Of a DNA stretch of 64,000 nt, positions 1 to 61,987 are shown one piece after another. The DNA lies in IMG/VR virus record IMGVR_UViG_3300028025_000093, positions 88,650 through 152,649 of that record; one strand, 5' to 3'. A program made the position numbers and the translations under genes. This stretch comes from a virus. Taxonomy: Duplodnaviria; Heunggongvirae; Uroviricota; Caudoviricetes. Position 1 is the stretch's first letter, and every line of letters begins with the position of its first letter. The notes below the pieces were generated by a model. That model did no database searches. It worked only from the letters and a program-made list of their open reading frames with translations, and had not been told where the DNA came from.

Positions 1-1
1 C

Positions 2-391
2 CTTACAACTATTGGTGAATTCACTACAGCATTAACTGCAACTGCTAATACATCATTAACATTACCAACAACTGGTACACTAGCAACTCTTGCTGGAACA
101 GAAACATTAACTAATAAGACTATCACTGGTGCAGTTATCAGTGGTGGTTCTATTGATAATACCCCAGTCGGTGCAACTACTAGATCTACTGGTGCCTTTA
201 CATCTCTAGCAGCCAATGGTGCCGTAACATTCACTAGCACTACTGACTCTTCTGCTGTTGGTAATGGAGCTTTGGTTCTTTCTGGTGGCTTATCTGTTGC
301 CAAAGCAATGTTTATTGGTACTAATATTACTGGTGCTGGTGCAGCAACTTCTACCCTTGATGGATTTAACATCGATGGCGGCACTTATTAA
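2..391 (+). CDS. tail fibre protein, C-terminal fragment (5' end lies outside the window)
   Basis: Open frame from the window edge to TAA at 389-391. The translation is Thr/Gly/Ala-rich and contains a 'TLTNKTI' fibre-repeat motif also present in the next two fibre-like ORFs. Confidence 0.55.
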   Translation, partial: LTTIGEFTTALTATANTSLTLPTTGTLATLAGTETLTNKTITGAVISGGSIDNTPVGATTRSTGAFTSLAANGAVTFTSTTDSSAVGNGALVLSGGLSVAKAMFIGTNITGAGAATSTLDGFNIDGGTY

Positions 392-397
392 TATTGA

Positions 398-404
398 CTA
401 AATA
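398..404 (+). promoter_or_regulatory. CTAAATA late-promoter-like motif upstream of 457..1101
   Basis: The CTAAATA heptamer is the cyanomyovirus variant of the T4 late promoter TATAAATA. The same heptamer recurs 19-21 nt upstream of three other structural-gene starts. Confidence 0.3.
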
Positions 405-413
405 GAATTAGTC

Positions 414-447
414 GGCTGGGGTTTTTACCCCAGCTTTAACCTTTTTA
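414..447 (+). terminator. rho-independent terminator-like hairpin
   Basis: GGCTGGGG-ttttta-CCCCAGC stem-loop followed by a T-rich stretch, immediately after the stop of the upstream fibre gene. Confidence 0.5.
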
Positions 448-456
448 GGAAGATGA

Positions 457-1101
457 ATGAGTAACAAAATTATACTCAAGAAATCATCGGTCGTAGCGAA
501 AGTTCCGCTTACCAGTGATTTAGAATACGGTGAATTGGCATTAAACTATGCTGACGGCAAACTGTATTTCAAGAATTCTTCCAATGTAGTAAACTCGTTC
601 GCTGCGAACGTTGACCTGTCTTCATATGTCAGCTTGACAGGCACACAAACCCTCACCAACAAAACCCTCAGCAGTCCTGTACTAACAGGAACATTGACTG
701 CTGGTGGCAGCACAGGTATAAATGGACAAGTTTTAGTTTCCACTGGTACTGGCGTACAGTGGCAATCACTAGCTTCAAATACTCTAGATGGACTTACTGA
801 TGTTGTTATAAGTTCACCTCAAGCTCAGCAAGTTCTTAAGTTTAACGGAACTCAGTGGATTAACGCAAACAACGATGTTGCGGTAGCTTCTGCAGTTTTT
901 GCACCACAAGCAATGAGTGACTTAGGTTCAGTTACTGATTTAGTTATTAGCATATCTGAAGATCTTGGGCTTATCACTGAACTTGCTTATTTCGTTTATG
1001 ACATGGGACAATTACGTTTAGATGGTATTGTATCATTGAATAACTTGGATCAATCTGTTAAATCAGATTATATTACTTACGCAATTATTTTTGGATTTTA
1101 A
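457..1101 (+). CDS. tail fibre-like structural protein
   Basis: ATG preceded by AGGAAG. It carries a 'TQTLTNKTL' motif shared with the neighbouring fibre ORFs and has a Gly/Thr/Ser/Val-rich composition. Confidence 0.5.
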   Translation: MSNKIILKKSSVVAKVPLTSDLEYGELALNYADGKLYFKNSSNVVNSFAANVDLSSYVSLTGTQTLTNKTLSSPVLTGTLTAGGSTGINGQVLVSTGTGVQWQSLASNTLDGLTDVVISSPQAQQVLKFNGTQWINANNDVAVASAVFAPQAMSDLGSVTDLVISISEDLGLITELAYFVYDMGQLRLDGIVSLNNLDQSVKSDYITYAIIFGF

Positions 1102-1111
1102 AGGTTAAACT

Positions 1112-3973
1112 ATGGCTCGTCAATTAGCAGAAAAATATATTTTCACTCCAGGTGGTACAAATGCAGGCACAATTAAAATTCCAGGTAAGATTGATTTAAA
1201 CCAATTACTGGTTATCACCAATAAAACTACTCAAGAAAATATCTATGCTCTAGGTGATCCTACCAGAAGTGCATCATGCTCATTTAACGCAGACGATATT
1301 GATACTTTTAATACTGCCTTTGATGGCGTAACAACTATCACTTTGACTAAAGACACATCAGAGATGTTGTCTACACATTCTTTGGCAATCTACAGTGATG
1401 CTCCAGCTTATCAAGGTACTGTTGTTAAACCATACTTTTTCGGCACAGATGCCATTGAACGTATACGTATTGCAAATCCACAGGCCATGATTGACGCTGA
1501 CTTTGAGTATGGTCTACAAACTACAAAGTGGCAGAACTATTCTTCTATTAGAAACATTCCAGGTATCTATGAGAAACCAGGTCTTGACTTGTTTATTACC
1601 AACGTAACTACTGACGGAGCAACTCCTTCTATTATTACTGTTACTTGTTCAGCACCTCACGGTCTTGCAGTTGCAGATCCAGTAATTTTACATGGTCTTT
1701 CTGTAGTATCTAATTTTGGTCGTGCAGAAGGTGCATTTATTATCGCCACTGTTCCAAGTGCCACTACGTTTACTTATTATGCTAAAGGTATTGTTGGACA
1801 AAACGGACAAACTATGTACGGTAGTGCAACATATGGTCGTCGTGGAGGTTTTTACGCTGGTGCACAATTACCAGTAGCTTCAATTACATCTAATGGAGCA
1901 AACCCATCAAATATTACTGTAACATTATCTGCGAACCATGGTTTAATCCCAGGTTCTCCAATTTCAGTTATTGCCACTTCTAGTGGAACAAACCACAACT
2001 TAGCTTCTGGAAACTGGTTTTTAGAAACTATTTCTAGCCCAACAACATTCACTTATACTTCTCGAGTAGGTGGAGCAGTAGCTGCTGCAGGATTAACTGC
2101 CAAAGTATTTGTTCGCTCAGATGCTATTTCTATTCACAGACCATTCGATGGTGGTATTATTCTTGGTCCATTCAGTCCATCCAATGGCGCATCTGCTATC
2201 CGACAAACTAAAAAATATATTCGTTATCAATCTGGTAAGGGTATTATGTTTACATCGGGTGTTTTATTTTGCCCAGTACATAACTTAGACCAAATTTCAG
2301 CCAATGGAACTGCTCCAGGATCTGTTGTTACCGTAGTGTGTGAAAGTAACCATGGTTGTCAAGTTGGAGCAACAGTAACAATTGCTGGTGTTATCACTGA
2401 AGGATATAATGGTACGTATGGTGTTACTTCTATTATTAATGAACAGACATTTACATTCTCAGCTTCTAATACACTAGAAGCTGCCAATACAGTATTAACT
2501 GATTTACCACGTGTGTCAGTTGTTGGCTGGCATGGCTCTACTGTTCGCTGCGGTCCATTCGATGATCAGAATGGTGTTTACTGGGAATTTGACGGTCAAG
2601 AGTTGGCTGTTGGTAAGCGTTCAGGTACTTATCAATTATCTGGATTTGTTTCTTGTACTCCAAATTCTCAAGCAGTGACAGGGACGAATAGTAGATTTAC
2701 TCAGCAATTGCGTGCTGGTAATAATATTATTATTCGCGGAATGACATACAAAGTTGCATCTATCAGTAGTGATACAGCATTAACAATTAACCCACCATAT
2801 CGTGGTATCAATCCATCTAAACCAGTTAAGTATACAGTAATTAGAGATACACGTGTTACCCAAGCTCAATTTAATATTGATAAAATAGATGGAACTGGGG
2901 AATCTGGTTATAAAATGAATATCGCCAAGATGCAGATGATCGGAATTCAATTCTCATGGTATGGTGCTGGTTTTATTGATTGGATGATTCGTGGATCTGA
3001 TGGTAATATGATTCCTGTCCATAGAATGAAACAGAACAACGTAAACGATGAAGCGTATATGCGTACTGGTAACTCAACTATTCGTTATCAGGTTATTAAT
3101 GAAATTGGTGCATCTACATTAACTGAAGATGTAGATGCAACACAAACAACTATTCCAGTTAAAGATGCATCTAGATATCCAGCCACTGGTGGAGTACTTA
3201 ATCTTGAAGGTGAGTTAATTCCATTCACTGGTAAAACAGGAAATACATTAACTGGATGTACTCGTGGTGGTAGTATTACTCAATTCGTTGGTGGTTTAAA
3301 TAGAACTTTCACAGGTAGAGCAGCGTTTGCGCATAGCAAAGGTGTTGGACAACAAGGTGTTGGATTAATGAGTGTAACATGTTCACCACTAATTAACCAC
3401 TGGGGTTCATCATATATTATGGACGGTAACTTTGACCAAGATCGTGGTTACTACTTTAACTATGCTTCTTTGAATAATACAATTGCGGCAGGTGCTTCAA
3501 AAACCGTATTCTTTATTAGATTGGCTCCTTCAGTTTCCAACTCTATTGCTGGAGACTTTGGTGATCGAGATCTAATCAATCGTTCACAATTGCTACTTGA
3601 AAAACTACAGATTACTTCTGACCAATCGGTTCAGGTTTATGGTATGTTAAATCCAGGTAATATTGACGCATCATCATTAAGTTGGGAAAACGTCAATACA
3701 GCAGAGTTAGGTTCTCAGCCATCTTTTGCGCAAATTGCATTTGGTGGTTCTACTGTTGCCAGTCCAGGAGAACAGATTTTCTCAACTCTGGGACAACCAG
3801 GAGGTTTCTCTGAGATTGACTTGGTAAAACTAAAAGAGTTATCGAATTCGGCAATTGGTGGTTATAGTAATTATCCAGATGGTCCAGACATGTTGGCCAT
3901 TGTTGTTAGAAATTTAGGAACAGCTTCATCTAAGGTAAACGTAAACTTATTCTGGACAGAAGCTCAAGCCTAA
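1112..3973 (+). CDS. large baseplate / tail-fibre structural protein (953 aa) with three tandem internal domain repeats
   Basis: Long ORF in the structural module. It contains three about 55-aa repeats of pattern 'P(S)xITVTxSAxHGLxxGxxVxIxG…TTFTY' at about 1625-2432. There is no enzymatic motif. Confidence 0.5.
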   Translation: MARQLAEKYIFTPGGTNAGTIKIPGKIDLNQLLVITNKTTQENIYALGDPTRSASCSFNADDIDTFNTAFDGVTTITLTKDTSEMLSTHSLAIYSDAPAYQGTVVKPYFFGTDAIERIRIANPQAMIDADFEYGLQTTKWQNYSSIRNIPGIYEKPGLDLFITNVTTDGATPSIITVTCSAPHGLAVADPVILHGLSVVSNFGRAEGAFIIATVPSATTFTYYAKGIVGQNGQTMYGSATYGRRGGFYAGAQLPVASITSNGANPSNITVTLSANHGLIPGSPISVIATSSGTNHNLASGNWFLETISSPTTFTYTSRVGGAVAAAGLTAKVFVRSDAISIHRPFDGGIILGPFSPSNGASAIRQTKKYIRYQSGKGIMFTSGVLFCPVHNLDQISANGTAPGSVVTVVCESNHGCQVGATVTIAGVITEGYNGTYGVTSIINEQTFTFSASNTLEAANTVLTDLPRVSVVGWHGSTVRCGPFDDQNGVYWEFDGQELAVGKRSGTYQLSGFVSCTPNSQAVTGTNSRFTQQLRAGNNIIIRGMTYKVASISSDTALTINPPYRGINPSKPVKYTVIRDTRVTQAQFNIDKIDGTGESGYKMNIAKMQMIGIQFSWYGAGFIDWMIRGSDGNMIPVHRMKQNNVNDEAYMRTGNSTIRYQVINEIGASTLTEDVDATQTTIPVKDASRYPATGGVLNLEGELIPFTGKTGNTLTGCTRGGSITQFVGGLNRTFTGRAAFAHSKGVGQQGVGLMSVTCSPLINHWGSSYIMDGNFDQDRGYYFNYASLNNTIAAGASKTVFFIRLAPSVSNSIAGDFGDRDLINRSQLLLEKLQITSDQSVQVYGMLNPGNIDASSLSWENVNTAELGSQPSFAQIAFGGSTVASPGEQIFSTLGQPGGFSEIDLVKLKELSNSAIGGYSNYPDGPDMLAIVVRNLGTASSKVNVNLFWTEAQA

Positions 3974-3997: not shown

Positions 3998-5773
3998 ATG
4001 GCAACACAAGTACAGTTTAGACGAGGTACAACTACTCAGAATAATGCGTTTACTGGCGCAGTCGGAGAACTAACATACGACACTGAAGTTAAAACTCTTA
4101 GAATTCACGATGGCGCAACTGCTGGTGGTGGTTCCATTGCTTTAACAACAAATGCAACGCAAACAGTTCTAAATAAAACTTTTAGTACTGGTTCTGTTTG
4201 GAATGGTGGTCCAGTCTCGTTACAATACGGTGGAACTGGAACTCCAATCAATCCAGTGGCTGGTGCTGTTGCGTATGGTACAGCTAATGGTATCCAATTA
4301 TCTGCAGCTGGTACTTCTGGTCAGGTTTTAATTTCTGGTGGTACTGCTGGTCCTTCATGGATTAACTCTACTGGTCTACAAACTGGTACTGCTGTTAACG
4401 CAACATTTGCATCTAACGTTGCAGGTGGATCTGCTGGTCAGTTAGTTATTCAGCAAGATTCTTCTTTAACTACATTTATTACTGCTGGTGCTGTTGGAAC
4501 ATTCTTGAAGTCCAATGGTGCTGGTTATGCTCCAGGTTGGGCAACTGCTGACATTACTATTGGTAGCACTGTTATTGATCTTGGATCTAGCACTACTTCA
4601 TTAGCTGGTTTAAACATTTTAGCTGCAACTGGAACTAGCCACTGGACATTACCAGTTGGTACTACTGCCCAACGTCCAGCATCTCCAGCAGTTGGTCAAG
4701 TTCGTTATAACTCTTCTCAATCTACGTTTGAGGGTTACTCATCTGGTGCATGGTCTTCACTTGGTGGTGTTAAATCTGTTGATGGTTTAACATACATTAT
4801 TGCTGAAACTTCAGCTGGAGCATCAAATGATGAATTAGAATTTTATGCTGCAACTGGTTCTTCAACTACAACTAAGGTTGGTGGTTGGAATTCCACTCGT
4901 TTGCTAGTTTCCAATAGCACTCAGTCTTCAAGCACTAGTACTGGTGCACTACAAGTTGTTGGTGGTGCTGGTATTGGTGGACACTTATATGTTGGTGGTA
5001 CTGTTAATATTACAGGAAACCTTACTGTTACAGGTACTACAACTACTACAAACAGCCAATCACTAACTGTTACAACTCCTCAGTTGTTCTTGGCTTCTGA
5101 TAATACTGGTAACACAACTGATATTGGTATTATTGGTGGTTACGTTAGTAGTGGCAATAAGAGAACTGGTCTTGTTAAACAAGCATCTTCTAACGAATGG
5201 CGTTTGTTCTCTAATACTACAGCAAACCCAGGAACAGTATATGATTTCACTGACGCAGTTTATGACAACCTACGTCTTGGTGGAATTATCGGTACTGGTA
5301 ATTCAAGTATCGGTGGCACATTAGCTGTAACTGGTGTAACAACACTAAGTTCTACACTTAGCGTTTCTGGTTTAATTACTTCTACTAGTGGTATTTCTGG
5401 TGGTCCAGCGTCTCATACTACTGGAACATTTAGTGGTGATATAACAGCTACTAGTGGTTCATTTAGTGGTGGTGTAACAGCCTCAGGTGGTTTCCAAACT
5501 TCTTCAGATGCTAGATTAAAGTCTAACATTCAAGATTCTTTATATGGTCTTGATACAGTTCTTGCTTTGCGCTCAGTTACATATACCAAAGATGGTAAGT
5601 CTGATGTAGGTCTTATTGCTCAAGAAGTTGAAGCTATAATTCCAGAATTTGTTGGTGAAAATAATGATGGCATGAAGACTGTTAACTACTCACAAATGGT
5701 TTCAGTTCTAATTAAAGCTGTTCAAGAATTAAAAGCAGAGGTAGATACTCTAAAAGCCAGACTAGGAGAATAA
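3998..5773 (+). CDS. tail fibre / neck-whisker-like protein with C-terminal intramolecular chaperone (peptidase S74-type) domain
   Basis: Gly/Thr/Ser-rich fibre with a 'TQTVLNKTF' motif. The C-terminus '…SSDARLKSNIQD…GLIAQEVEAIIPEFV…' matches the signature of the auto-cleaving intramolecular chaperone found at the ends of phage fibres and endosialidases. It lies directly upstream of the neck genes, the position that wac holds in T4. Confidence 0.6.
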   Translation: MATQVQFRRGTTTQNNAFTGAVGELTYDTEVKTLRIHDGATAGGGSIALTTNATQTVLNKTFSTGSVWNGGPVSLQYGGTGTPINPVAGAVAYGTANGIQLSAAGTSGQVLISGGTAGPSWINSTGLQTGTAVNATFASNVAGGSAGQLVIQQDSSLTTFITAGAVGTFLKSNGAGYAPGWATADITIGSTVIDLGSSTTSLAGLNILAATGTSHWTLPVGTTAQRPASPAVGQVRYNSSQSTFEGYSSGAWSSLGGVKSVDGLTYIIAETSAGASNDELEFYAATGSSTTTKVGGWNSTRLLVSNSTQSSSTSTGALQVVGGAGIGGHLYVGGTVNITGNLTVTGTTTTTNSQSLTVTTPQLFLASDNTGNTTDIGIIGGYVSSGNKRTGLVKQASSNEWRLFSNTTANPGTVYDFTDAVYDNLRLGGIIGTGNSSIGGTLAVTGVTTLSSTLSVSGLITSTSGISGGPASHTTGTFSGDITATSGSFSGGVTASGGFQTSSDARLKSNIQDSLYGLDTVLALRSVTYTKDGKSDVGLIAQEVEAIIPEFVGENNDGMKTVNYSQMVSVLIKAVQELKAEVDTLKARLGE

Positions 5774-5774
5774 G

Positions 5775-6512
5775 ATGGCTGTAACATCAAGAGATGGTTT
5801 GAAACAATATGCGCTGCGAGCACTTGGCGCACCTGTGCTTGAAATTAACGTAGATGATGATCAATTAGAAGATCGCATTGATGAAGCACTAGATTACTGG
5901 CGTCAGTATCACTGGGATGGTATCGAAAAGGTATACCTAAAACATCGTGTTACTCAGCAAGATATCACTAATAGATATTTGCCACTATCAGATTTAGTTT
6001 GGGGTGTTACTCGTGTAATTCCACTAACTATGGCATCATCGTCACAACAAATTTTTGATTTACAATATCAGTTGCGTTTACACGATTTGTATGACCTAAC
6101 ATCGGTATCAATGATTTATTACAACCAAGTAATGAGTCACTTAGCCTTGTTAAACGATCAATTGAATGGACCACAAACATTCCGTTTCAATAAATTGCAG
6201 AGCAAATTGTTCATTGAACTTAATTGGGGCACAGAAGCCAAGGTTGATGATTGGATCGTAGTTGAATGTTATCGTGTGCTAGATCCTGAAGAATATACCA
6301 AAGTATGGGGTGAGGCTTGGTTAAAGCATTATACCACTGCATTGTTTAAGAAACAGTGGGCGACCAATATTAAGAAATTCTCTGGCATTCAACTTCCAGG
6401 TGGCGTTACTCTAGATGGTAATGCACTGTACGATGAAGCTGTTGGAGAAATAAAAGAACTAGAAGATGAGCTAATGAATAAATCAGCTCCATTAGATATG
6501 TTCTTAGGATAA
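5775..6512 (+). CDS. neck protein (gp13-like)
   Basis: Position immediately upstream of the gp14/gp15/gp17 homologues. The N-terminus 'LRALGAPVLEINVDDDQL…YHWDG' resembles the T4-like gp13 N-terminus as I recall it. Confidence 0.5.
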   Translation: MAVTSRDGLKQYALRALGAPVLEINVDDDQLEDRIDEALDYWRQYHWDGIEKVYLKHRVTQQDITNRYLPLSDLVWGVTRVIPLTMASSSQQIFDLQYQLRLHDLYDLTSVSMIYYNQVMSHLALLNDQLNGPQTFRFNKLQSKLFIELNWGTEAKVDDWIVVECYRVLDPEEYTKVWGEAWLKHYTTALFKKQWATNIKKFSGIQLPGGVTLDGNALYDEAVGEIKELEDELMNKSAPLDMFLG

Positions 6513-6514
6513 GC

Positions 6515-7432
6515 ATGACCACAACTAATGTCTACTTTTCTCACGGTACTAAAAACGAACAATACCTAGTTGAGGATTTGATCATTGAATCGTTACGTAT
6601 GTACGGTAACGAAGTCTATTACATTCCAAGAACATTAGTTTCAAAAGACGAGATCTTAGGTGAAGATCGTTTGTCTGAATTTAAAACTGCATTTCCCATT
6701 GAAATGTACTTTGAAAACATAGACAACTTTGCTGGGCAAGGTGCGTTTATTCAAAAGTTTGGTCTTATGGTAGAACAGTCTGCCACTCTAGTAGTTGCAC
6801 GTCGTCGCTGGGATCAGTTTGTTGGTAGATATGAAGTTAGTATACTACCACACAGACCAGCTGAAGGTGATCTAATTTATTTCCCACTATCTAAAGGATT
6901 GTTTGAAATTAAGTTTGTTCAGCATCAAGACCCTTTCTATCAACTAGGTAAGTTATACGTTTATAAATTACAAGTTGAATTGTTCCAGTATAGTTCTGAG
7001 CGTATTGATACTGGTATTGCAGCTGTAGATAACTTTGAATCATTAAAATCATTCACCACAAACTTAACTAGAAGCAACTTTGGTGAAGTTACTGAAATTA
7101 ATATGGTTAATCGAGGTAGTGGGTACACAGCAGTTCCAGATGTTACCATAACTGGTGGTTCTGGTCGTGGCGCAACAGCAGTGGCTGTTATTGGAAGTGG
7201 CTCAGATTTGGGTAAAATTGTTAGAATTGATATTACTAATGGTGGAACTAGCTACAATTCTATTCCAACAGTTACAATATCTCCTCCAACCAGTGGTGTT
7301 ACTGCAACTGCAACAGCAGTAGTTGAAGTTGACATTGATAAAGTTGAATCGTTTGGTGACAACAATAAATTTAAAGAAGAATCTTCTGGTATTGTTTTCA
7401 ACGAGAATAATCCGTTTGGAGATGTAATTTAA
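6515..7432 (+). CDS. neck protein (gp14-like) with C-terminal 'GSGYT…PTVTI' repeat domain
   Basis: Synteny between the gp13-like and gp15-like genes. Its C-terminal part carries the same repeat motif that is inserted in the tail sheath. Confidence 0.45.
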   Translation: MTTTNVYFSHGTKNEQYLVEDLIIESLRMYGNEVYYIPRTLVSKDEILGEDRLSEFKTAFPIEMYFENIDNFAGQGAFIQKFGLMVEQSATLVVARRRWDQFVGRYEVSILPHRPAEGDLIYFPLSKGLFEIKFVQHQDPFYQLGKLYVYKLQVELFQYSSERIDTGIAAVDNFESLKSFTTNLTRSNFGEVTEINMVNRGSGYTAVPDVTITGGSGRGATAVAVIGSGSDLGKIVRIDITNGGTSYNSIPTVTISPPTSGVTATATAVVEVDIDKVESFGDNNKFKEESSGIVFNENNPFGDVI

Positions 7433-8181: not shown

Positions 8182-9762
8182 ATGGCTCAAGTTTATAATG
8201 CTAATGCGAATCTAAAGGCTGCTGGGGTTTCAGTTCAGTTTACTCCTGAACAAGTTCAAGAGATTATTAAATGTACTGCAGACCCAATATACTTTATAGA
8301 AACGTATTGTCAAATCGTTTCGCTTGATCGTGGTTTAATTCCATTTAAGCTGTACGATTGTCAAAAAGAAAAAGTTAATATAATCCATAACAATCGCCGT
8401 GTGATTCTTATGGAAGGTCGTCAGCAAGGTAAGACAACTACCTCTGCTGCTTATATTCTTTGGTATACTATATTCCAAGAAAATAAAACTGTAGCTATTC
8501 TTGCTAACAAAGCTACTGCTGCTCGAGAAGTATTATCTCGTTATCAGTTAATGTTTGAGCACTTACCTGTGTGGTTGCAACAAGGTGTTACTACTTGGAA
8601 TAAAGGTGACATTGAACTAGAAAATGGCTCAAAAGTTTTTACAGCTGCAACATCAACGTCAGGTATTCGTGGTAAGTCTGTTAACATGCTTTACGTTGAC
8701 GAAACTGCTATTATTCCAAACACTGTTGCTGAAGAATTCTTTACGTCAGTGTACCCAACTATTTCAGCTGGTGAAACTACAAAGATTTTGTTGTCCTCTA
8801 CGCCACTAGGTTACAATCACTTTTGGAAGTATTGGAATGATGCTGAAAATGGTCGTAATGGTTTCGTTCCACTATTCATTCCTTACTGGAAAATTCCAGG
8901 TCGTGATGAGAAATGGGCAGCTGAACAAAAGGCAATGCTTGGTGAACTAAAATACAACCAAGAAGTATTATGTAAGTTTTTAGGTTCCAGCTTAACATTA
9001 GTTGCAGCAGATACTATTGCAAAAATGTCAATTGCTCAAACAGTGTTTAGTAAAGATGGGTTAGATATATATGAACACGTTAAAGAAGGTAATGTATACG
9101 TATTAGTGGCCGACACAGCTAAAGGTGTTGGTGGTGACTATTCGGCATTTTCTGTCATTGATATATCCGAAGTACCATATAAACTTGTGGCTAAGTATAG
9201 AAAGAATGATATTAGTCCACTTTTATATCCAAACATTATACATCACGTAGCAACACAATTTAATGAAGCATTTGTACTAATTGAGATTAATTCAAGTGAG
9301 CAAGTGCCTTATATTATACATAATGAACTAGAGTATGAGAACTTGATGTTTGTTAGTAGATCTGGTGGTATGCAAACTATTACTGGCGGATTTGGTGGCG
9401 GTACTACTCAGCTGGGAGTAAATACCGACAAACGAGTAAAACGAACTGGATGTCATAACTTTAAATCATTAGTTGAAGAAAATAAGTTAATCATCCAAGA
9501 CGCTGATACGATTTCTGAAATTTCCACGTTTATTGAAACACGTGGTTCTTATGCAGCTGACGATGGTTATCACGATGACTTAGTTATGACTTTAGTACTG
9601 TTTAGCTGGTTAACAGCAACACCGTATTTTAAAGACCTAAATAATGTAAACCTGAGACAAGTTATGTATGAGAAAAGAATCAAGGCATTGGAGGATGAAT
9701 TAACTCCATTTGGCTTCTTAGATAATGGCGACACAAGAGAAAAACCACTTTTGAACTTCTGA
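8182..9762 (+). CDS. terminase large subunit (gp17-like)
   Basis: Walker A-like 'GRQQGKTT', an ATPase plus nuclease domain organisation, and the expected position before the tail sheath and portal genes. Confidence 0.9.
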   Translation: MAQVYNANANLKAAGVSVQFTPEQVQEIIKCTADPIYFIETYCQIVSLDRGLIPFKLYDCQKEKVNIIHNNRRVILMEGRQQGKTTTSAAYILWYTIFQENKTVAILANKATAAREVLSRYQLMFEHLPVWLQQGVTTWNKGDIELENGSKVFTAATSTSGIRGKSVNMLYVDETAIIPNTVAEEFFTSVYPTISAGETTKILLSSTPLGYNHFWKYWNDAENGRNGFVPLFIPYWKIPGRDEKWAAEQKAMLGELKYNQEVLCKFLGSSLTLVAADTIAKMSIAQTVFSKDGLDIYEHVKEGNVYVLVADTAKGVGGDYSAFSVIDISEVPYKLVAKYRKNDISPLLYPNIIHHVATQFNEAFVLIEINSSEQVPYIIHNELEYENLMFVSRSGGMQTITGGFGGGTTQLGVNTDKRVKRTGCHNFKSLVEENKLIIQDADTISEISTFIETRGSYAADDGYHDDLVMTLVLFSWLTATPYFKDLNNVNLRQVMYEKRIKALEDELTPFGFLDNGDTREKPLLNF

Positions 9763-9843: not shown

Positions 9844-12033
9844 ATGCCTTTTCAACTTAGTCCTGGCGTTGCAGTTGTAGAAAAAGACTTCACATCAATC
9901 GTTCCAGCAGTATCTACTGCAGCTGGAGGTTTTGCTGGTGCGTTCCAATGGGGTCCATGTCTACAACCAGTGACAATTAACTCAGAAAACGATTTAGTAC
10001 GACGTTTCGGTAAGCCATCCGATGTATTATTTCAATCATTTTTTACAGCTGCCAACTTTTTAAGTTATACAAATAACTTACTAGTAGTTCGTGCTGATAC
10101 ATTATCTCACAGAAATGCTGTTGCTAGCGTATCTGGTACTCTACAAAGCGTAACAATGACCAACGTTGGTTCTGGTTATACCAGTGTCCCAACTGTTGCA
10201 TTTAGCGCACCTCAAATTCCTGGTGGCGTAACTGCTACTGGTACTGCTGTTTTATCTGGTGGTGGCGTAACTGCTGCTACTATTGCTAACCAAGGTAGTG
10301 GTTATATTAGTGCCTTAGTTACTTTTAGTGCACCACAAAATTCAAGTGGCGTACTTGCTACTGGTACTGCTACTATTGTTGGTGGTGCAATTACAGGTAT
10401 CTCAATCACTAATGCTGGTTCTGGTTATACTATCGCTCCTACTGTAACAATTACATCAGCAAGTGGTGTTGGTGCTACAGTTGGTGTTGTTACTATTCAA
10501 GCATCTACTGTTGTTGGTATTACTACTAATAATGGTGGTACTGGTTATACTACTGCTCCTACTGTAACAATTACTGGTGGTGGTGGAACTGCAGCAGCTG
10601 CAACAGCTTCTATTCAAGTTGGTGGCGTTAAGATTCTAAACGAAAACGATTACTTAGCTAACTGGGCTGCTGGCTCTGGTGTTAATGGTGAGTGGGCTGC
10701 AAAATACCCAGGAACTCTAGGTAACTCTATTAAAGTTTCTATGTGCGGTAATACTGCTGCATTTACAACTTGGGAATATAAAGCAGAATTTGATTCTGCA
10801 CCTGGAACTTCTGATTACGCTGCTAGCGTATCTGGTTCTAATGACGAATTACACGTTATCGTTATTGATAATGATGGTCGTTGGACAGGTCAGCCTGGAG
10901 CAGTTCTAGAAAAGTTTGCTTATGTTTCTAAAGCATCTGATGCTAAAAAATCTGATGGTACAAACAACTACTATAAAGATGTAATCAATGGTCGTTCAGA
11001 GTATATCTGGTGGACTGATTTCCCATTAAATACTGGTAACACAGCTCCAGTAACTGATTGGGGTATCATTGCTACTAATAATGCGTTTGATGATTGCGGT
11101 AATAAGACTTATATTTTAGCTGGTGGTGTTGATACAACTGTTCCTACAGATGGTCAGTTGATGACAGCATGGGATATCTATCGTGACGACAGTCGTTATG
11201 ATGTATCTCTAATGCCAATTGGTAAAGCAAGCACTACTGTTGCTAACTTTGTTATTGCAATAGCAGAAGAGCGCAAAGATTGTATGGTCTTTATTTCCCC
11301 ACAAGACGTTTCTAGTGGTGAGATTATCCAGAACAGTCAGTATCAAACTGGCGCAATTGAAAAGATTATTGCTTACCGTAATGCTCTACCATCAACTTCT
11401 TATGCTGCGCTAGACTCTGGTTACAAATATCAGTATGATCGCTATAACGACAAATATCGTTTTATTGCTCTAAATGGTGACGTTGCTGGTCTATGTGCTC
11501 GCACTGATTACACTAATGATCCTTGGTTCTCTCCAGGTGGTCTAAATCGTGGTCAAATCAAGAACGTAGTTAAGTTAGCAGTTCATCTACACAAGACTGA
11601 TCGTGATAACCTTTACAAAGCTGGTATTAACCCTGTTGTTAATTTCCCAGGAGAAGGTACTGTTCTATTCGGTGACAAGACTTTATTATCTAAGCCAAGT
11701 GCTTTTGATCGTATTAACGTACGTCGTCTATTCATCGTTATGGAAAAAGCAATTGCTACTGCTGCTAAATTCCAGTTGTTTGAATTCAACGATGGATTTA
11801 CTCGTGCTCAGTTCCGTAACTTAGTAGAGCCATTCCTACGTGATGTTCAAGGTCGTCGTGGTATTACTGATTTCGTAGTTAAGTGCGATGATTCTAACAA
11901 CACTGGTGAAGTTATTGATCGTAACGAATTTGTTGCTGACATCTTTATCAAGCCAAATCGTTCTATCAACTTTATCACTCTTAACTTTGTTGCTGCTCGC
12001 TCTGGAATTAACTTTTCAGAGATCGGTGCGTAA
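9844..12033 (+). CDS. tail sheath protein (gp18-like) with inserted repeat domain
   Basis: 729 aa with a strong AAGGAGA RBS. Sheath-like N- and C-terminal regions flank an insertion (about 10160-10610) of five 'GSGYTxxPTVTIT'-type repeats. Confidence 0.85.
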   Translation: MPFQLSPGVAVVEKDFTSIVPAVSTAAGGFAGAFQWGPCLQPVTINSENDLVRRFGKPSDVLFQSFFTAANFLSYTNNLLVVRADTLSHRNAVASVSGTLQSVTMTNVGSGYTSVPTVAFSAPQIPGGVTATGTAVLSGGGVTAATIANQGSGYISALVTFSAPQNSSGVLATGTATIVGGAITGISITNAGSGYTIAPTVTITSASGVGATVGVVTIQASTVVGITTNNGGTGYTTAPTVTITGGGGTAAAATASIQVGGVKILNENDYLANWAAGSGVNGEWAAKYPGTLGNSIKVSMCGNTAAFTTWEYKAEFDSAPGTSDYAASVSGSNDELHVIVIDNDGRWTGQPGAVLEKFAYVSKASDAKKSDGTNNYYKDVINGRSEYIWWTDFPLNTGNTAPVTDWGIIATNNAFDDCGNKTYILAGGVDTTVPTDGQLMTAWDIYRDDSRYDVSLMPIGKASTTVANFVIAIAEERKDCMVFISPQDVSSGEIIQNSQYQTGAIEKIIAYRNALPSTSYAALDSGYKYQYDRYNDKYRFIALNGDVAGLCARTDYTNDPWFSPGGLNRGQIKNVVKLAVHLHKTDRDNLYKAGINPVVNFPGEGTVLFGDKTLLSKPSAFDRINVRRLFIVMEKAIATAAKFQLFEFNDGFTRAQFRNLVEPFLRDVQGRRGITDFVVKCDDSNNTGEVIDRNEFVADIFIKPNRSINFITLNFVAARSGINFSEIGA

Positions 12034-12676: not shown

Positions 12677-14242
12677 ATGCAATTATTTGGATTCGAGATA
12701 ACACGTAAAACTGAAAAAGAGGTCGGAGCTGTAGTAACTCCGATCTCTGATGACGGCTCAACAGTTGTATCTTCCAATGCCACTTCCTATTATGGAATGG
12801 TTATGGATTTGGATACCATTGTTAAGAATGAGAACGATTTAATTAGACGTTATCGTGATACAGCAATGTACGCTGATTGCGATGCAGCCATTGAAGACAT
12901 TGTAAATGAAGCAATCATTTCAGAGTCTGATGATCAAGCTGTAAAGATTAACTTAGATAAAGTTAAGTTGTCTGAGTCTATTAAAAATAAGATTCGTGCA
13001 GAGTTTGACGAAATCTTACGTTTATATAATTTCGATGATAAAGGTCACGAAATTTTCCGTCAGTGGTATATTGATGGGCGTAGTTATTACAATATTCTTT
13101 TGGATGTTGAGAATCCAAAAGCTGGAATTCAAGAATTGCGTTATGTGGATCCTAGAAAGATTCGCAAGATTAAAAATGTGGAAAAGAAACGCAACCCACA
13201 AGGTATTGATATCGCTGTAAAGACTGAAGAGTATTACATTTACAACGATAAAGGAATCACTGAGGCACAAGTTGGTGGTGTTAAACTGTCTGTTGATTCT
13301 ATTGTCTACTGTCCTTCTGGATATGTAGACCACAATTCAGGTTTAATGCTTTCGTATTTACACAAAGCTATTAAGCCAACCAATCAATTAAAGATGATTG
13401 AAGATGCGGTTGTTATTTACCGTATTAGTCGTGCTCCAGAACGTAGAGTGTTTTATGTTGATGTTGGTAACTTGCCTAAATTAAAGGCTGAGCAATACGT
13501 TAATGATATTATGAACAAGTTTAAAAATAAAATTGTTTATGATGCAACTACTGGTGAAACACGTGACGATCGTCGCCATCTATCAATGATGGAAGATTTC
13601 TGGATGCCACGTCGTGAAGGTGGTAAGGGTACTGAAATTACCACATTACCAGGTGGACAGAATTTGGGTGACATTCAAGACATTCAATACTTCCAACAGA
13701 AGTTATATCAAGCATTGAATGTTCCACTATCAAGATTACAACCATCAACTGGGTTTGCACTTGGTAGATCTACTGAAATTACACGTGATGAAATTAAGTT
13801 TAATAAATTTATCCAACGTGTACGTAAAAAGTTTAGTACCCTATTTGGTGCAGCATTACGTGTTCAGTTGATTGCAAAGAATATTATTAAGCCAGAAGAA
13901 TGGAAAGGCTTAGAGCAGTTAATACAGTATGATTATCAGCAAGACAATAACTTTGCTGAATTAAAAGACAATGAACTTTTAATACAACGTGTAACTGCCC
14001 TGACTCAAATGGAACCATTCATTGGTAGATTTTATTCTGCCAAGTGGATTCGTAAAAATGTATTACATCAAACTGACGATGAGATCGAACAGTTGGATAA
14101 AGAAATGCAAGAAGATCGTGATACAGCTTTTGATGATGCTGAACACAAAGGTGCACTTGCTGGTACTACTCAAGTAGCACAACAGAAAGAATTATCAGAT
14201 AATGGATTTGGTGGTGATGAACAATCACCTAATGCACAATAA
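12677..14242 (+). CDS. portal vertex protein (gp20-like)
   Basis: 521 aa (T4 gp20 is 524 aa), in the expected position between the tube and prohead core genes. Confidence 0.85.
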   Translation: MQLFGFEITRKTEKEVGAVVTPISDDGSTVVSSNATSYYGMVMDLDTIVKNENDLIRRYRDTAMYADCDAAIEDIVNEAIISESDDQAVKINLDKVKLSESIKNKIRAEFDEILRLYNFDDKGHEIFRQWYIDGRSYYNILLDVENPKAGIQELRYVDPRKIRKIKNVEKKRNPQGIDIAVKTEEYYIYNDKGITEAQVGGVKLSVDSIVYCPSGYVDHNSGLMLSYLHKAIKPTNQLKMIEDAVVIYRISRAPERRVFYVDVGNLPKLKAEQYVNDIMNKFKNKIVYDATTGETRDDRRHLSMMEDFWMPRREGGKGTEITTLPGGQNLGDIQDIQYFQQKLYQALNVPLSRLQPSTGFALGRSTEITRDEIKFNKFIQRVRKKFSTLFGAALRVQLIAKNIIKPEEWKGLEQLIQYDYQQDNNFAELKDNELLIQRVTALTQMEPFIGRFYSAKWIRKNVLHQTDDEIEQLDKEMQEDRDTAFDDAEHKGALAGTTQVAQQKELSDNGFGGDEQSPNAQ

Positions 14243-26371: not shown

Positions 26372-26536
26372 ATGGAAATGTGGAAAGACTTTAGCGACTT
26401 TGAAATTGCATCTCTTGCTGGAAGTTATGGCTTGGAAGACTTAATTGTTTTCAATAGCGATCTAACTCTTGCAAACCGCACACAGCTTGAAACTTTGATT
26501 GCGGAATTTGAAATTGACATGGCATTTGGAGAATAA
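26372..26536 (+). CDS. small hypothetical protein (about 55 aa)
   Basis: First ATG after the conserved GGAGA RBS of the cassette. Confidence 0.35.
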   Translation: MEMWKDFSDFEIASLAGSYGLEDLIVFNSDLTLANRTQLETLIAEFEIDMAFGE

Positions 26537-28727
26537 TATGAACTCTAAAATAAATGCAGTTGACTTAACAGCAAAACTTCTTGCCACAGAAAACCTAAGC
26601 GTACGTCGTGCTCGATCACGTACTGCATCTTTTGATATTAAATCTCGGGTGCTAACTCTTCCAATGTGGAAAGACATGACACCAGAAGTTGAGGGTATGT
26701 TGGTTGGTCACGAAGTTGGTCATGCTCTATGGACTGGCGATGAGTACATGAAACCGATCCAAGAAAACCCAAAGATGCATTCTTACTTGAATGTGTTGGA
26801 AGACGTACGTATTGAGAAATTGCTCAAACGTAAATATCCAGGTATTCGTAAGACCATGAATGAGGGTTACAAACAACTCAACGAAAAGGACTTCTTTGGT
26901 GTTGGTAAAACTGATCTGACTTTAATCAATCTTATTGACAGAATTAACCTTTATTACAAAGCAGGTTTTACTTGTGGTGTTCAGTTTACACCTGAAGAAA
27001 AGTCATTCGTAGTTCGTGCTGAAAAGACAGAAACTATTGATGAGGTAGTTACCCTTGCCAAAGAAATTTATGAATACTCTCTGGAGCAAGCAAAAAAGAA
27101 TGCTGGTCAACGTATGCTCGAAGAACAACAAGAGCGAGAAGAAGACGATGAGGAATCGGGTGAGTATGATGACCTAGATGAAATTGATGAAGACTTCGAT
27201 AACATCGATGATTCAGATATGGACAAGACAGGTGAAACTCAAGACGAAGATGCTTTTGAGGGTGAAGAAAAGAAACAATCTTCTTTGGGCAAAACCAAAA
27301 CTGAAGAAGAAAAGAAACAAGAAATTGTTGACAAAGAAATGGAATCCGTGACGGATAAAACTCTGGAAGAGAAACTTGCTGAATTGGCAGATGAATCAAC
27401 TGAGTTCCACTACCATCAGCTGGACAGCGATTATGTCGTTGACCACGTTATTGGTTACAAAAAGATTTTGTCTGATGTTGCCGAGTCGTTTGTAAATATG
27501 GAACACAATGTTAAATCTATTGATGACTTTAAACCAGAATCTTCACGTATCGTGAATTATCTCATCAAAGAATTTGAGATGAAAAAGTCTGCAACAATGT
27601 ATAAACGTGCTCAGACTTCAAAGATGGGTTCTTTGGATATGAAGAAAGTTTGGTCTTACAAGTTGAATAGCGATTTGTTCAAACGTGTAACTACTTTCCC
27701 GCAAGGTAAAAATCACGGTATGATTTTCTTGCTTGACTGGTCAGGTTCGATGGATATGATGTTGGATGACACTATCAAACAAGTTGTTACCTTGGCAATG
27801 TTCTGTCAACGTGCTCAGATCCCGTATCAGGTATTTGCCTTTAGTAGTCAATACGACATCTTTACTCAGCACACTGATGCATATAGTAAAATGCGTGCCA
27901 AGCAGACTGCTATCTACGCAACTGAAGATACTAAGATTCTGAATAATGCTGTGAACAACTTTGCTTTACTTGAGTTGTTTAGCAACAAGATGAGTAATGT
28001 TGAGTTCAACACAATGTGTAAGTATGTGATGGATCGTTACTTCCGCTACGCCAGAAATGGTGAATACAATACTGGTGGTACTCCACTAAATGAAGCATTG
28101 GCATATATGGTTGATTATATTCCAAAATTCATCAAAGCCCACAACGTTGAGAAAATGTCATTCATTACTCTGACGGATGGTGAGGGTGCAGCTTTGTATC
28201 CTGTGTATCGTCAATCTCTCGATTCAGTACGCAATGAACGTGTCCTTGACGAAAAGACTGGTGAGTACAGATACAATCGTATTCAGATGAAACACTTCTT
28301 ACAAGATCCTATGACTAAAAAGTCTTATGAATTGCCTAAGCATGGTAGTGGTCAAAGCGAAGTATTGTTGCGTATGATTAAAGATCGTTACAATGTTAAT
28401 AGCGTTGGATTTTATATCGTGCCAAATACACGTCGTTACTTGTGTCAAGCAGTTCGTGCAAACTTGCCTGGATTTGCTGGTTCTGAATATAACCTTGTTG
28501 ACGTATGGCGTAAAGAGTTCCGTGACAATGGATTTGCATCTGTTAAAAACACTGGACGTGATGACTTGTTTATTATCCCTCAGAATAAACTTGCTGTTGA
28601 AAATGAACAACTTGAAATTCTTGCAAACCAAACGGCAAAGCAAATTTCAAATAAGTTCAGTAAAATGATGTCCTCCAAGAAGACTAGCCGAGTGCTGCTC
28701 AACAAGTTTATTGGTTACGTTGCGTAA
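26537..28727 (+). CDS. CobT-like von Willebrand factor A domain protein
   Basis: MIDAS motif 'LLDWSGSM' and an acidic central region. It is paired with a downstream CobS-like MoxR ATPase, as in marine T4-like phages. ATG at 26537 follows a GGAGAATAAT RBS. Confidence 0.7.
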
Positions 28728-58540: not shown

Positions 58541-61500
58541 ATGAAGAAATACAGACAATTAATAAAAGAACTTCCTACAAAGAAAGTAGTATTTGCCTTT
58601 GGTCGATTCAATCCACCAACGACAGGTCACGAATTGCTTGTAAAGACAGTCAAAAAGCTGGCTAGCACTGGTAGTGCTGACCACGCCATCTATGCTTCAA
58701 AAACTCAAGATGCTAAAAAGAATCCACTCTCAGTGGATAAAAAAGTTCAATACCTTGGCAAAATGTTCCCAAGCACAAAGTTTGTGGCTGCCAACCAAAA
58801 CGTAAGAACTTACATCGAAGCAGTTAAAGAACTCAATAAAAAATACAAAAACCTTGTTATGGTCGCAGGTAGTGATCGTGTTCAAGCGTATCAAGAATTA
58901 CTAAACAAATACAACGGCAAAGAATTTCACTTTGATACTATTGAAGTAGTATCTGCAGGTGAGCGTGATCCAGACGCAGATGATGCTTCTGGTATGTCTG
59001 GAACAAAGATGCGTAGTCTAGCTGCAAAAGGTGACTACGCTACATTCAAGAAAGGTCTTCCTTCTACTCTACGTGACATTGACGGTAAGCGTTTGATGAA
59101 TGACGTGCGTCTAGGTATGGGTATTGAAGCATTGAAAGAACAAGTTCGTTTTGACATTGATGCTCTACGTGACGAATTCTTTAAGGGTAAGATCTACACA
59201 GTTGGTCAATTTGTTGAGTCAGACAATCAACGTTACGAAATCATTGATCGTGGTAGTAACTATCTTGTACTAGTTAATAGCACAGGAGAAACTTGTAAGA
59301 AGTGGATTCAAGATGTTACATTATCTGAAGACCAATTACAAGAAGATGTTACAGGTGGAACTGCACCAGAACAAATTACATTCAAAGGTTACACAACCAA
59401 AAACTTTGCTCGCACTGCTGATGCAGCAAAAGCATTCCAAGATACAATCTCTCGTGCTTCAGAAAAAGATCCAGTGGCAGTTTTGAATGCTCTAAAGGCA
59501 ACTGATACTTATATGGGTATCAATGATCGTCACATTGCTGGCGAAGAATTAACTGATGCTGAGATTACTCAGTGGAAAGAAGCCAGAGTTAAAGCACAAG
59601 AATCATTGGCTCGTGTTGGAGAATTTATGCATCATATGGATTACTTCCATACGCATGAACACGAACTAGAAGGTCTATTAACAAATTTCAAAGATAGTGG
59701 TAAAGGCGAATTCATGGAAGCGTTATCAGATAAAACATTACGTCCAACAGACAAGATTAAAGTGGCACGTATTATTGCTACTATGTTGGGAGTTGATAAA
59801 GTTGAAGCAACTTCAAATCCAGAGTTGTTGGTTAATACTGCATTGCGTAGAATTAAAACCAAGACGCTAAATCCTGAAGCACTTAACATTGTAAATAAGA
59901 TGTTGGCTTTGGCTAATGAAATGGGTATTGATTACGATACAAACCTTATCCCACAGAAATTACAAGTTACAGAAGATGCTGTGGTTAAGTTTGATCCAAA
60001 GAAAACAAATAATATCGCTCAAGGTATTATGACGTTTGACGATTATCAAAAGTTAAAGAACATGACCAATAAAGCTGGTCATAGTCTTGGGCATACCGAT
60101 AATGACAACTTGCGTAAGATGAAAGTCAAGCACATGACTGAAGCCAGTGCATTGGAAAGATTCCGTGCCGCAGCTGCTGAGCGTGAAAAGAAACACGATG
60201 AGATTGAGCGTAAGCGTAAAGAAGCTGCTGCCCAAGGCAAAGAAAACATGTCTGGTGCCATTGATCGTTTAGAAAAGCATCTAAACAAAGAAGGTCTAGA
60301 TGAAATTGCAATGTACGATTTGCCAAACAATGATCGTATGGATAAAAAAGGTATTGCGGTAAATCCATTCCGCAAAGAAAAAACTGCTTCAGATTTGGCT
60401 AGAATTGCTAAAGCAAAGGCAGCAGAAAAGAATCAAAAGGGCATATACAAACCACAATCTGCAGGGCAAAGAAAAGCTACTGTCAACGACTTAATGAAAT
60501 TGGTTAAGCACATTGGGGAAAGTGCCCATGTAGAATTTCGCATCGACAATCGTGATAAAGTAAGTGGTGACCATAAGTCTACGTTTGCAGATCACGAAGC
60601 AAAAGTATCAGATACAACTGATAAAGCAACTTACGTAAAAGTACCATCTCATAAAGCAGATTCATTTAAATCTGCCATGAAATCTAAGCATGGGGTTCGT
60701 GTAGAGTTGGCTGAATCACGTGGACTTGCCGATAAGTATTACAGCATGGCTCAGGATCGTAAAGAAACTGCGCATGAAAACAAAGGCAATCACGAAGTAT
60801 ATCATACACATATGGCAGATCATCATGACGCCATGAGTCGTTACCATGAAGAACTTGGTCAGCATTCTCTTGCTCAAGCCCATGCTGATAAAGCAGAAAT
60901 TCACCATGAAAAGTCTATGGAGAAACCTAAAAAAGGTTTAGCTGAATCTGCTTGGGGTAAGGATAAAATGACTAACCTACGTCAAGCCCACGATCGTCAT
61001 ATGGAAAAGGCACTGGCTGCAAATAAAGCTGGTGATGATGAAGCAGTTAAAACTCACCAAAGAAAAATGCAGACGATCCAGACTCAGATGCAGAAACTTA
61101 AACAGAACGAAGAAGTAGATAATATTCAAGAAGATGAAATAGATACTACGGATTATAAGTTATCCCCAAGTGGTCGTAAAGTTCGTGCTCATCGTATCAA
61201 AGTTGGTGACAATAAAAAAGATGACGATGTGGAAGATATGAAAGAAGCTACCATGTCTGATGCAGATATGAAAGAGCGTGAGCGTATCGTTAAGGGTATG
61301 AAAAAGAATATCGCTGGTTTTAAAGCACGTTATGGTAAAGATGCTGAATCAGTAATGTACGCCACTGCCACTAAAGCAGCAATGAAAGAAGAAACAGAGC
61401 AGTTCGAAGAAGTTGATATGTCTCATATTGAAGACCATAAAGATCAGCAAGAACAAAACATAGAAGACCAGTTAATGGCTGAGTTAGATTTAACTGATGA

Positions 61501-61987
61501 ACAAATCGATCACATTGTTGATTCCGCTCAAGAAGATGACTTTATCGAACAGTATGATGATGAAGAATTGGCAATTGTTGATGAAGAAAGTGGCGAAGAA
61601 ATTGAAGAAGAACAAGTTAATGAACAAACATTAATGGAAGTTCTATCCAAAGTAGAACGTATCCGTGCTCGTTTACGTTTTGCTAAAACCAAAGGTAAGC
61701 GTGAGCGCAAAGCACAAATTGCCCTAAAGACACGTTCAACAAATGCCGTTGCAAATAAACGTGCACGTCGTCTGGCAATTAAGTTAATGAAGAATCGTTT
61801 ACTGCGTGGTCGTGATGCAAACAAAATCTCTATCGGTGAGAAAGAACGCATTGAACGCATAATCCAAAAACGTAAAGTAATCGTTGGACGTATCGCCATG
61901 AAGTTGGTACCACGCATCCGTCAGATTGAGAAGTCACGTTTATCACATACTAAATTTACAAAGGGTGCTCCAAATGTTGCGTTTTAA
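58541..61987 (+). CDS. 1148-aa protein with an N-terminal (H/T)xGH nucleotidyltransferase (NMNAT/cytidylyltransferase-like) domain fused to a very long charged, His-rich low-complexity region
   Basis: 'FGRFNPPTTGHELLV' (HxGH-type motif) and 'SGMSGTKMR' (ISST-type motif) within the first 170 aa. The remaining 950 aa are K/E/D/A/M-rich, with His-rich stretches such as 'HTHMADHHDAMSRYHEELGQH'. Confidence 0.6.
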   Translation: MKKYRQLIKELPTKKVVFAFGRFNPPTTGHELLVKTVKKLASTGSADHAIYASKTQDAKKNPLSVDKKVQYLGKMFPSTKFVAANQNVRTYIEAVKELNKKYKNLVMVAGSDRVQAYQELLNKYNGKEFHFDTIEVVSAGERDPDADDASGMSGTKMRSLAAKGDYATFKKGLPSTLRDIDGKRLMNDVRLGMGIEALKEQVRFDIDALRDEFFKGKIYTVGQFVESDNQRYEIIDRGSNYLVLVNSTGETCKKWIQDVTLSEDQLQEDVTGGTAPEQITFKGYTTKNFARTADAAKAFQDTISRASEKDPVAVLNALKATDTYMGINDRHIAGEELTDAEITQWKEARVKAQESLARVGEFMHHMDYFHTHEHELEGLLTNFKDSGKGEFMEALSDKTLRPTDKIKVARIIATMLGVDKVEATSNPELLVNTALRRIKTKTLNPEALNIVNKMLALANEMGIDYDTNLIPQKLQVTEDAVVKFDPKKTNNIAQGIMTFDDYQKLKNMTNKAGHSLGHTDNDNLRKMKVKHMTEASALERFRAAAAEREKKHDEIERKRKEAAAQGKENMSGAIDRLEKHLNKEGLDEIAMYDLPNNDRMDKKGIAVNPFRKEKTASDLARIAKAKAAEKNQKGIYKPQSAGQRKATVNDLMKLVKHIGESAHVEFRIDNRDKVSGDHKSTFADHEAKVSDTTDKATYVKVPSHKADSFKSAMKSKHGVRVELAESRGLADKYYSMAQDRKETAHENKGNHEVYHTHMADHHDAMSRYHEELGQHSLAQAHADKAEIHHEKSMEKPKKGLAESAWGKDKMTNLRQAHDRHMEKALAANKAGDDEAVKTHQRKMQTIQTQMQKLKQNEEVDNIQEDEIDTTDYKLSPSGRKVRAHRIKVGDNKKDDDVEDMKEATMSDADMKERERIVKGMKKNIAGFKARYGKDAESVMYATATKAAMKEETEQFEEVDMSHIEDHKDQQEQNIEDQLMAELDLTDEQIDHIVDSAQEDDFIEQYDDEELAIVDEESGEEIEEEQVNEQTLMEVLSKVERIRARLRFAKTKGKRERKAQIALKTRSTNAVANKRARRLAIKLMKNRLLRGRDANKISIGEKERIERIIQKRKVIVGRIAMKLVPRIRQIEKSRLSHTKFTKGAPNVAF

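Follow-up and report, generated by a model that had tools for sequence, protein, structure and literature searches.

The tail sheath gene of an uncultured T4-like phage carries a series of repeats between its conserved regions, which raises the question of what these repeats are, how old they are and what they could do on the virion. The window, that is, the whole stretch of 64,000 nt that was analysed, is a structural block of a T4-like myophage with 38% G+C, and the genes around the sheath are the following:

5775–6512: gp13
6515–7432, plus strand: gp14-type neck protein gene, 305 aa
7432–8178: gp15
8182–9762: large terminase (TerL)
9844–12033, plus strand: gp18-type contractile tail sheath gene, 729 aa
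12064–12657: tail tube gp19
12677–14242: portal gp20

The ORF at 9844–12033 is confirmed by its Pfam domains, its PDB sequence matches and its gene order as encoding a T4 gp18-type contractile tail sheath protein. It harbors PF22671 (Gp18_domIII_N, aa 31–83), PF04984 (Phage_sheath_1, aa 462–614) and PF17482 (Phage_sheath_1C, aa 616–716), all three above the curated cut-offs, and matches phrog_23 (1e-124), the T4 gp18 chains of 9mkb and 3j2m (E about 1e-94, best 2.5e-94) and the KP1 sheath 9ev2 (3e-92). The order gp13–gp14–gp15–TerL–sheath–tube–portal is kept, by Pfam labels, in relatives L001–L006. The neck protein is recognised by PF11649 (aa 6–200, E 4.8e-36) and by phrog_460, 'head closure Hc2' (3.6e-86). 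Megablast of the sheath gene against 50,697 GenBank phage records returned no match, and the phage is therefore considered uncultured; the identical sheath sequence is present in metagenomes at JGI and ENA, in contigs that reach 162 kb. The nearest cultured sheaths, with about 50% protein identity, are those of Stenotrophomonas phage DLP_6, the Methylophilales Melnitz phages, the Pelagibacter phages HTVC008M and Mosig, and the Xanthomonas phages X1 and BUDD, and all of them align in at least two pieces that skip the repeat region. Rfam, promoter and terminator scans of the sheath region gave nothing above chance, and the window contains no tRNAs.

The surroundings of the sheath gene have features of their own. 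TerL starts four bases after the end of gp15, which leaves no space for a gp16 small-terminase gene, unlike in T4. Directly upstream of gp13, in the place of wac in T4, the plus strand (3998–5773) encodes a 591-aa fibre-like protein with Mtd_N at its N-terminus and a Peptidase_S74 intramolecular chaperone domain at its C-terminus. Three further large plus-strand ORFs (1112–3973, 26499–28727 and 58541–61987; 953, 742 and 1148 aa) gave no hit to Pfam at E ≤ 1e-3 and lack the repeat module. The neck region is plastic among relatives: the closest one, L001, has an additional 236-aa ORF between gp14 and gp15 (2879–3589) and a longer gp14 (339 aa), in L006 the same two genes are separated by a 435-aa ORF and a Peptidase_S8 protein (717–3568), and in L004, a relative with 10 repeats, an ORF longer than 1450 aa immediately precedes gp15 (1–3601).

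The preliminary description counted five repeats in the sheath, inserted between conserved sheath regions. The location is upheld, but the number has to be lowered to four, according to a repeat HMM and to the four G-x-G-Y anchors at nt 10168, 10294, 10417 and 10537. The repeat elements of the window are:

10144–10632, plus strand: array of four half-repeats of about 41 aa, found with the repeat HMM, at the site of T4 domain I (sheath aa 101–263)
10144–10272, plus strand: half-repeat R1, aa 101–143 (QSVTMTNVGSGYTSVPTVAFSAPQIPGGVTATGTAVLSGGG)
10270–10395, plus strand: half-repeat R2, aa 143–184
10393–10515, plus strand: half-repeat R3, aa 184–224
10513–10632, plus strand: half-repeat R4, aa 224–263
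10421–10454, plus strand: 34-nt stretch of R3 coding for (S)GYTIAPTVTIT, identical at 32 of 34 nt to 10541–10574 (repeat family D3, 59 nt at 83%)
10541–10574, plus strand: 34-nt stretch of R4 coding for (T)GYTTAPTVTIT, identical in L001
7091–7333, plus strand: gp14 unit of two half-repeats near the C-terminus, aa 193–273 (repeat HMM, 40 and 43 bits)

The half-repeats have a period of 40–42 aa and the consensus V-x-I-T-I-T-N-x-G-S-G-Y-T-x-A-P-T-V-T-I-x(3-6)-G-x-G-A-T-A-T-A, in which the G, Y and P of the G-x-G-Y...P motif are invariant. The related two-repeat module proposed earlier at the end of the gp14-like neck protein does exist, at very nearly the same place; it is 38–47% identical to the sheath units, matches within the phrog_460 profile (positions 215–296), and is found in gp14 of all five relatives in which this gene was captured. 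No other ORF of the 64-kb window contains a further copy. A DGR-type variable region, a candidate prompted by the Mtd_N domain of the upstream fibre protein, was rejected for the sheath repeats.

The number of repeats differs between relatives, as the preliminary description had anticipated, and copy number is a real polymorphism. Among the best 120 metagenomic homologues, which fall into length classes of about 725, 806, 888 and 968 aa, four repeats are present in 86, six in 17, eight in 14 and ten in two; the HMM count of nine in one protein is treated as eight, since it belongs to the 888-aa class. When the copy-number classes are placed on a tree built from the conserved C-terminal part (310 aa), at least 11 changes are needed, versus 32 for shuffled labels. 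Such changes can separate very similar proteins: the cores of P0102 (eight repeats) and P0106 (six) are about 99% identical, and the difference between the two is one block of about 86 aa. When six- and eight-repeat proteins are paired (P0085/P0102, P0077/P0052 and P0064/P0079), the extra half-repeats are the central R4 and R5 in all three cases, the repeats that flank the indel are the most diverged ones, and the central-pair indel is out of phase with simple tandem units. Copy number on the sheath would shift by in-register gain or loss of two half-repeats, usually the central pair. As an idea rather than a result, this pair could be the tip of a stack, if outbound and inbound half-repeats paired as a hairpin that grows at its tip. 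The array is also the least conserved part of the sheath, with a mean identity to the window protein of 61%, versus 77% for aa 1–100 and 80% for aa 421–729.

The near-identity of the two 34-nt stretches had been taken to indicate a recent intragenic duplication, with R4 derived from R3 shortly ago and the match as its remnant. The 32 identical positions of 34 are exactly as claimed, and they are more than the peptides demand: back-translation of both peptides with local codon usage gives an expected 27 of 34 (P(≥32) = 0.0025), so that the match goes somewhat beyond a conserved peptide and codon bias, and the same codon is used at 12 of 14 shared residues where 6.9 are expected (P 0.006), therefore with a modest excess of synonymous identity. 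These values speak for a duplication, but the rest of the repeat does not follow. In register, R3 and R4 are identical at just 67 of 120 nt (56%), with 10–12 matches of 12 in three successive 12-nt blocks, near-random values outside them and a collapse of identity beyond about 38 nt; the 34-nt stretch itself codes for (S/T)GYT(I/T)APTVTIT, the part of the repeat peptide that is best conserved. Tandem Repeats Finder reports no array with a period of about 120 nt, only four short low-period rows. The proteins point in the same direction, as R3 and R4 are 50% identical, which equals the family-wide R3–R4 average (0.51), and both have an orthologous counterpart in each of the 86 relatives with four repeats, the most distant of which are about 66% identical. 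Across these relatives, which are 66–93% identical overall, repeats at the same position are more alike (0.59–0.62) than different repeats within one protein (0.40–0.51), and all four repeats are therefore older than the family. Locally, R3 and R4 agree at 35 of 39 positions in the window; the corresponding values are 33/39 in L001 (93% aa identity), 30/39 in L003 (79%) and 26/39 in L006 (71%), and motif conservation alone takes non-orthologous repeat pairs of other relatives to 32/39. Among 121 sampled proteins, no recent unit duplication is seen: units of one protein are at most 59% identical to each other, and the highest value per protein has a median of 42%. With neither high DNA identity across the unit nor a copy missing in close relatives, a recent duplication is already largely refuted and must be regarded as highly improbable.

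It could also be argued that both repeats are old and that about 38 nt of them were made alike by short-tract gene conversion between R3 and R4, in an ancestor that this phage and L001 shared not long ago. The excess of synonymous identity is confined to a window of that size, and the local identity given above peaks in this phage and its closest relative and falls with distance. However, a P of 0.0025 is modest once the best of six pairs has been chosen, codon choices that are inherited and then drift predict an equal decay, and the 38 nt show no flanking conversion signature, so that conversion as the full account is a tentative possibility. The best reading is that the 34-nt identity corresponds to a conserved motif with shared codons in an old repeat pair, perhaps sharpened by a short conversion tract in a recent ancestor.

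The preliminary description proposed checking by structure prediction whether the repeats form projecting Ig-like or β-sandwich domains, and the predicted structure agrees with this only in part: the model is confidently all-beta, and the tests run give no indication of an Ig-like fold. The insert alone (aa 94–270) is modelled by AF2 with a pLDDT of 94.3 and a pTM of 0.78. In the full-length model (mean pLDDT 74) the repeats reach 82–92 per block of 10 residues, and the N- and C-terminal arms have low confidence, as expected for a sheath monomer outside its assembly. DSSP assigns 12 strands to the insert model, three per half-repeat and six per pair, and neither model has an α-helix within the repeats. 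No Ig-superfamily profile or fold match is obtained; Foldseek finds nothing significant in the PDB (3fo8 at E 5), and phmmer of the insert against PDB sequences gives only non-significant matches (a molybdopterin-binding protein at E 0.13). Two half-repeats are predicted to form together a closed barrel of six strands and about 81 aa, and the sheath protein would therefore hold two units. The even copy numbers, the two half-repeats of gp14, the presence of three strands in each repeat and the six strands of the T4 domain together argue for the same unit of two half-repeats (about 81 aa).

The position of the array helps to place these units on the tail. By phmmer, sheath aa 5–114 align with T4 gp18 residues 4–112 and aa 422–727 with residues 337–654, and the first block enters the start of T4 domain I, pairing 'IAGNIEYTISTPGSNYAV' of the window with 'VSGTLQSVTMTNVGSGYTS'. 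Downstream of the array, alignment by eye relates 'AKYPGTLGNSIKVSM' of the window to 'ALYPGELGDKIEIEI' of T4, and 'KYPGTLGNSIKVSM' to 'LYPGELGDKIEIEI', as would be the case for an insert at the domain I site (T4 98–188, within domain II). As the matches flank the array on both sides, it occupies the position of T4 domain I, and the chain would enter and leave it as in that domain. A review of T4 describes domain I as a part of gp18 that protrudes from the tail, has no role in gp18–gp18 contacts and serves as a binding site for the baseplate and for long tail fibres in their retracted state. It is the outermost domain of the T4 sheath and is likewise not involved in contraction. The gp18 mutations G106S, S175F and A178V prevent fibre retraction, and, with the T4 sequence indexed after removal of Met, they appear to map to the PGSNY turn and the SSSSSGLAA loop, the likely counterparts of the two hallmark loops of the module. 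By analogy of site, the array would project outward from the sheath.

T4 domain I (residues 98–188; PDB 3FOA, 3FO8) consists of one unit plus an α-helix, in contrast to the two helix-free units of this sheath and up to five in relatives. Its sequence similarity to the module is not statistically significant, and the resemblance may reflect homology or the convergent use of one loop. The repeat HMM has no significant match in T4 gp18, T4 gp14 or six cultured relatives (T4 about 0 bits), the hhalign comparison of the unit profile with a domain I profile of 11 phages, assembled from 10 phage records, is not significant (P 0.017, probability 2.7%), and a homologue search with the T4 domain I fragment gave no returns. 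The unit thus resembles T4 domain I in its predicted role, and it may be kin to it. In the sheaths of HTVC008M, Melnitz, DLP_6 and P-HM1 the domain I site is empty, with '...SSGLQ' directly followed by 'VKNTTDY...'. An unrelated insert of about 90 aa follows the 'KVSMC' strand in HTVC008M, Melnitz-3, DLP_6 and P-HM1, and in the S-WAM1 sheath another long insert, of a different kind, fills the domain I site. The differing insert sites in sheaths L008–L012 imply that at least three different loops hold outer domains in T4-like sheaths.

The module itself is widespread. No Pfam or NCBIfam model matches the insert, and a search of the literature for a phage 'GSGY' repeat found nothing relevant. 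Among its PHROG matches are tail fibres (phrog_5342, 17885), baseplate wedge (2885, 708, 438, 32294), virion structural proteins (701, 19630, 4406), baseplate hub/lysozyme (1922) and the cyanophage gp14 family (460). With tblastn it is found in genes for cyanophage tail fibres and structural proteins, with weak matches in many gp14 genes, and the structure matches in BFVD include P22 gp10-like, baseplate, fibre and structural proteins, with no sheath among them. A three-sequence profile of the window's units matched 12,663 cluster representatives (50% identity) at E ≤ 1e-3 and 4,216 at 1e-10; many of these proteins have 1,000–7,000 aa and as many as 35 matched stretches, and Pfam finds no domain in most of the ones that were scanned. 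In cultured T4-like cyanophages (e.g. Syn9, S-RIM8, S-RSM4), gp14 of PHROG 460 has the same architecture as in the window, a T4_neck-protein domain followed by a two-repeat unit; the module is not found on their sheaths, unlike in the window, and T4 gp14 lacks the unit that the window gp14 possesses.

Two other sheaths carry the module. The Xanthomonas X1/BUDD sheath (WEM34268.1) is, like that of the window, T4-type, and the two are about 50% identical; it has a single unit, which sits in another loop (near window aa 400) rather than at the domain I site. In X1 (OQ427096.1) this unit spans aa 244–318 of the sheath CDS 286–2262, with HMM scores of 44 and 38 bits, and it is not annotated as such in the record. 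P0262, a metagenomic sheath-like protein of 1868 aa without a Pfam domain, has at least 17 half-repeats at aa 491–1261 and is 30% identical over 165 aa to the C-terminal region of the window sheath. The presence of the module in these two proteins indicates a mobile cassette that sheath proteins have acquired on more than one occasion.

The proposed model is that the sheath bears an old, peripheral decoration array, whose unit is a promiscuous virion-surface module with one copy on gp14 of the same phage and kin in cyanophage fibre, baseplate and structural proteins. Its anatomy and evolution, i.e. an old, peripheral array of two-repeat units at the domain I site, can be considered probable. 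The units would stand out from each sheath subunit as well as from the neck ring, without a role in contraction, and form a multivalent surface module along tail and neck that would most likely serve for weak binding. The candidate partners are the phage's own folded-back or retracted fibres, by analogy with T4 domain I, and polysaccharides of the cell surface or of particles, and either one is doubtful when taken as the specific ligand. Binding to host or particle surface polysaccharides has been proposed generally for extra sheath domains (PMC9230969).

It could be thought that the array is an expanded ancestral domain I of the T4 type, by true homology, that serves as a docking surface for retracted long tail fibres and is extended to the neck by the gp14 copy. 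This is rather unlikely: neither sequence similarity nor Foldseek is significant, the nearest cultured relatives have no domain in that position, the module has demonstrably moved between loops of the sheath, and the analysis gave no evidence of fibre retraction by this phage. Still less likely is the broader form in which the G-x-G-Y unit is the ancestral form of T4 domain I, and a mobile barrel cassette shared by sheath, neck, baseplate and fibres for their mutual recognition (e.g. fibre stowage), stacked on the sheath as a nested hairpin that grows and shrinks at its tip. If true, the nested stack would explain the strictly even counts and the central indels, and it would give the tail a 'pile' of adjustable height. 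A role as carbohydrate or cell-surface adhesins, analogous to the Ig-like domains on Hoc and other sheaths and conferring weak multivalent adherence to the envelope or to particles, is about as doubtful as homology to domain I, as the invariant G, Y and P look structural rather than ligand-binding, no similarity to known binding domains is significant, and no Pfam lectin, CBM or Ig model matches. Stabilisation by cementing of adjacent sheath subunits, instead of free projection, has been proposed for extra sheath domains of other phages such as phage 812 (PMC9230969). Here it is quite improbable, because a contact surface would hardly tolerate two to five units between near-identical cores; moreover, T4 domain I makes no gp18–gp18 contacts at that site, and the unit also occurs in fibres and towards the C-terminus of gp14, in a free part of that protein. 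An old, peripheral array at the domain I site is thus the reading retained.

Extra outer domains on sheaths are known, and their roles are largely guesswork. The multi-domain 'type 3' sheaths (Evseev et al. 2022, PMC9230969) likewise have extra all-beta domains away from the tube-contacting core, which are thought to be dispensable for contraction and for which adhesion or stability has been proposed (PMC9230969). Those domains are Ig-like or β-sandwiches, in contrast to the array described here, which is not Ig-like by the tests run and is made of tandem copies of one module whose number varies between close relatives, an arrangement not mentioned in that survey, whose text does not contain the word 'repeat' (PMC9230969). 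T4 Hoc and other Ig-like surface strings share the concept of small, variable beta domains in variable copy number; Hoc differs in its fold, in its carrier, the capsid rather than the sheath, and in having no sequence relation to the module. The array is therefore a variation on a known theme, that of extra outer sheath domains, built from an abundant undescribed module, and no new kind of system; it has no bearing on the mechanism of contraction. It does offer a natural experiment, in which one confidently modelled module is present in two to five units on near-identical sheaths, at the site of the domain that has been linked to fibre stowage in T4, and also on the neck protein of the same phage. 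The module is abundant and yet is without a Pfam or NCBIfam model or a solved structure, and a family definition would help to annotate many giant 'hypothetical' structural proteins of aquatic phages.
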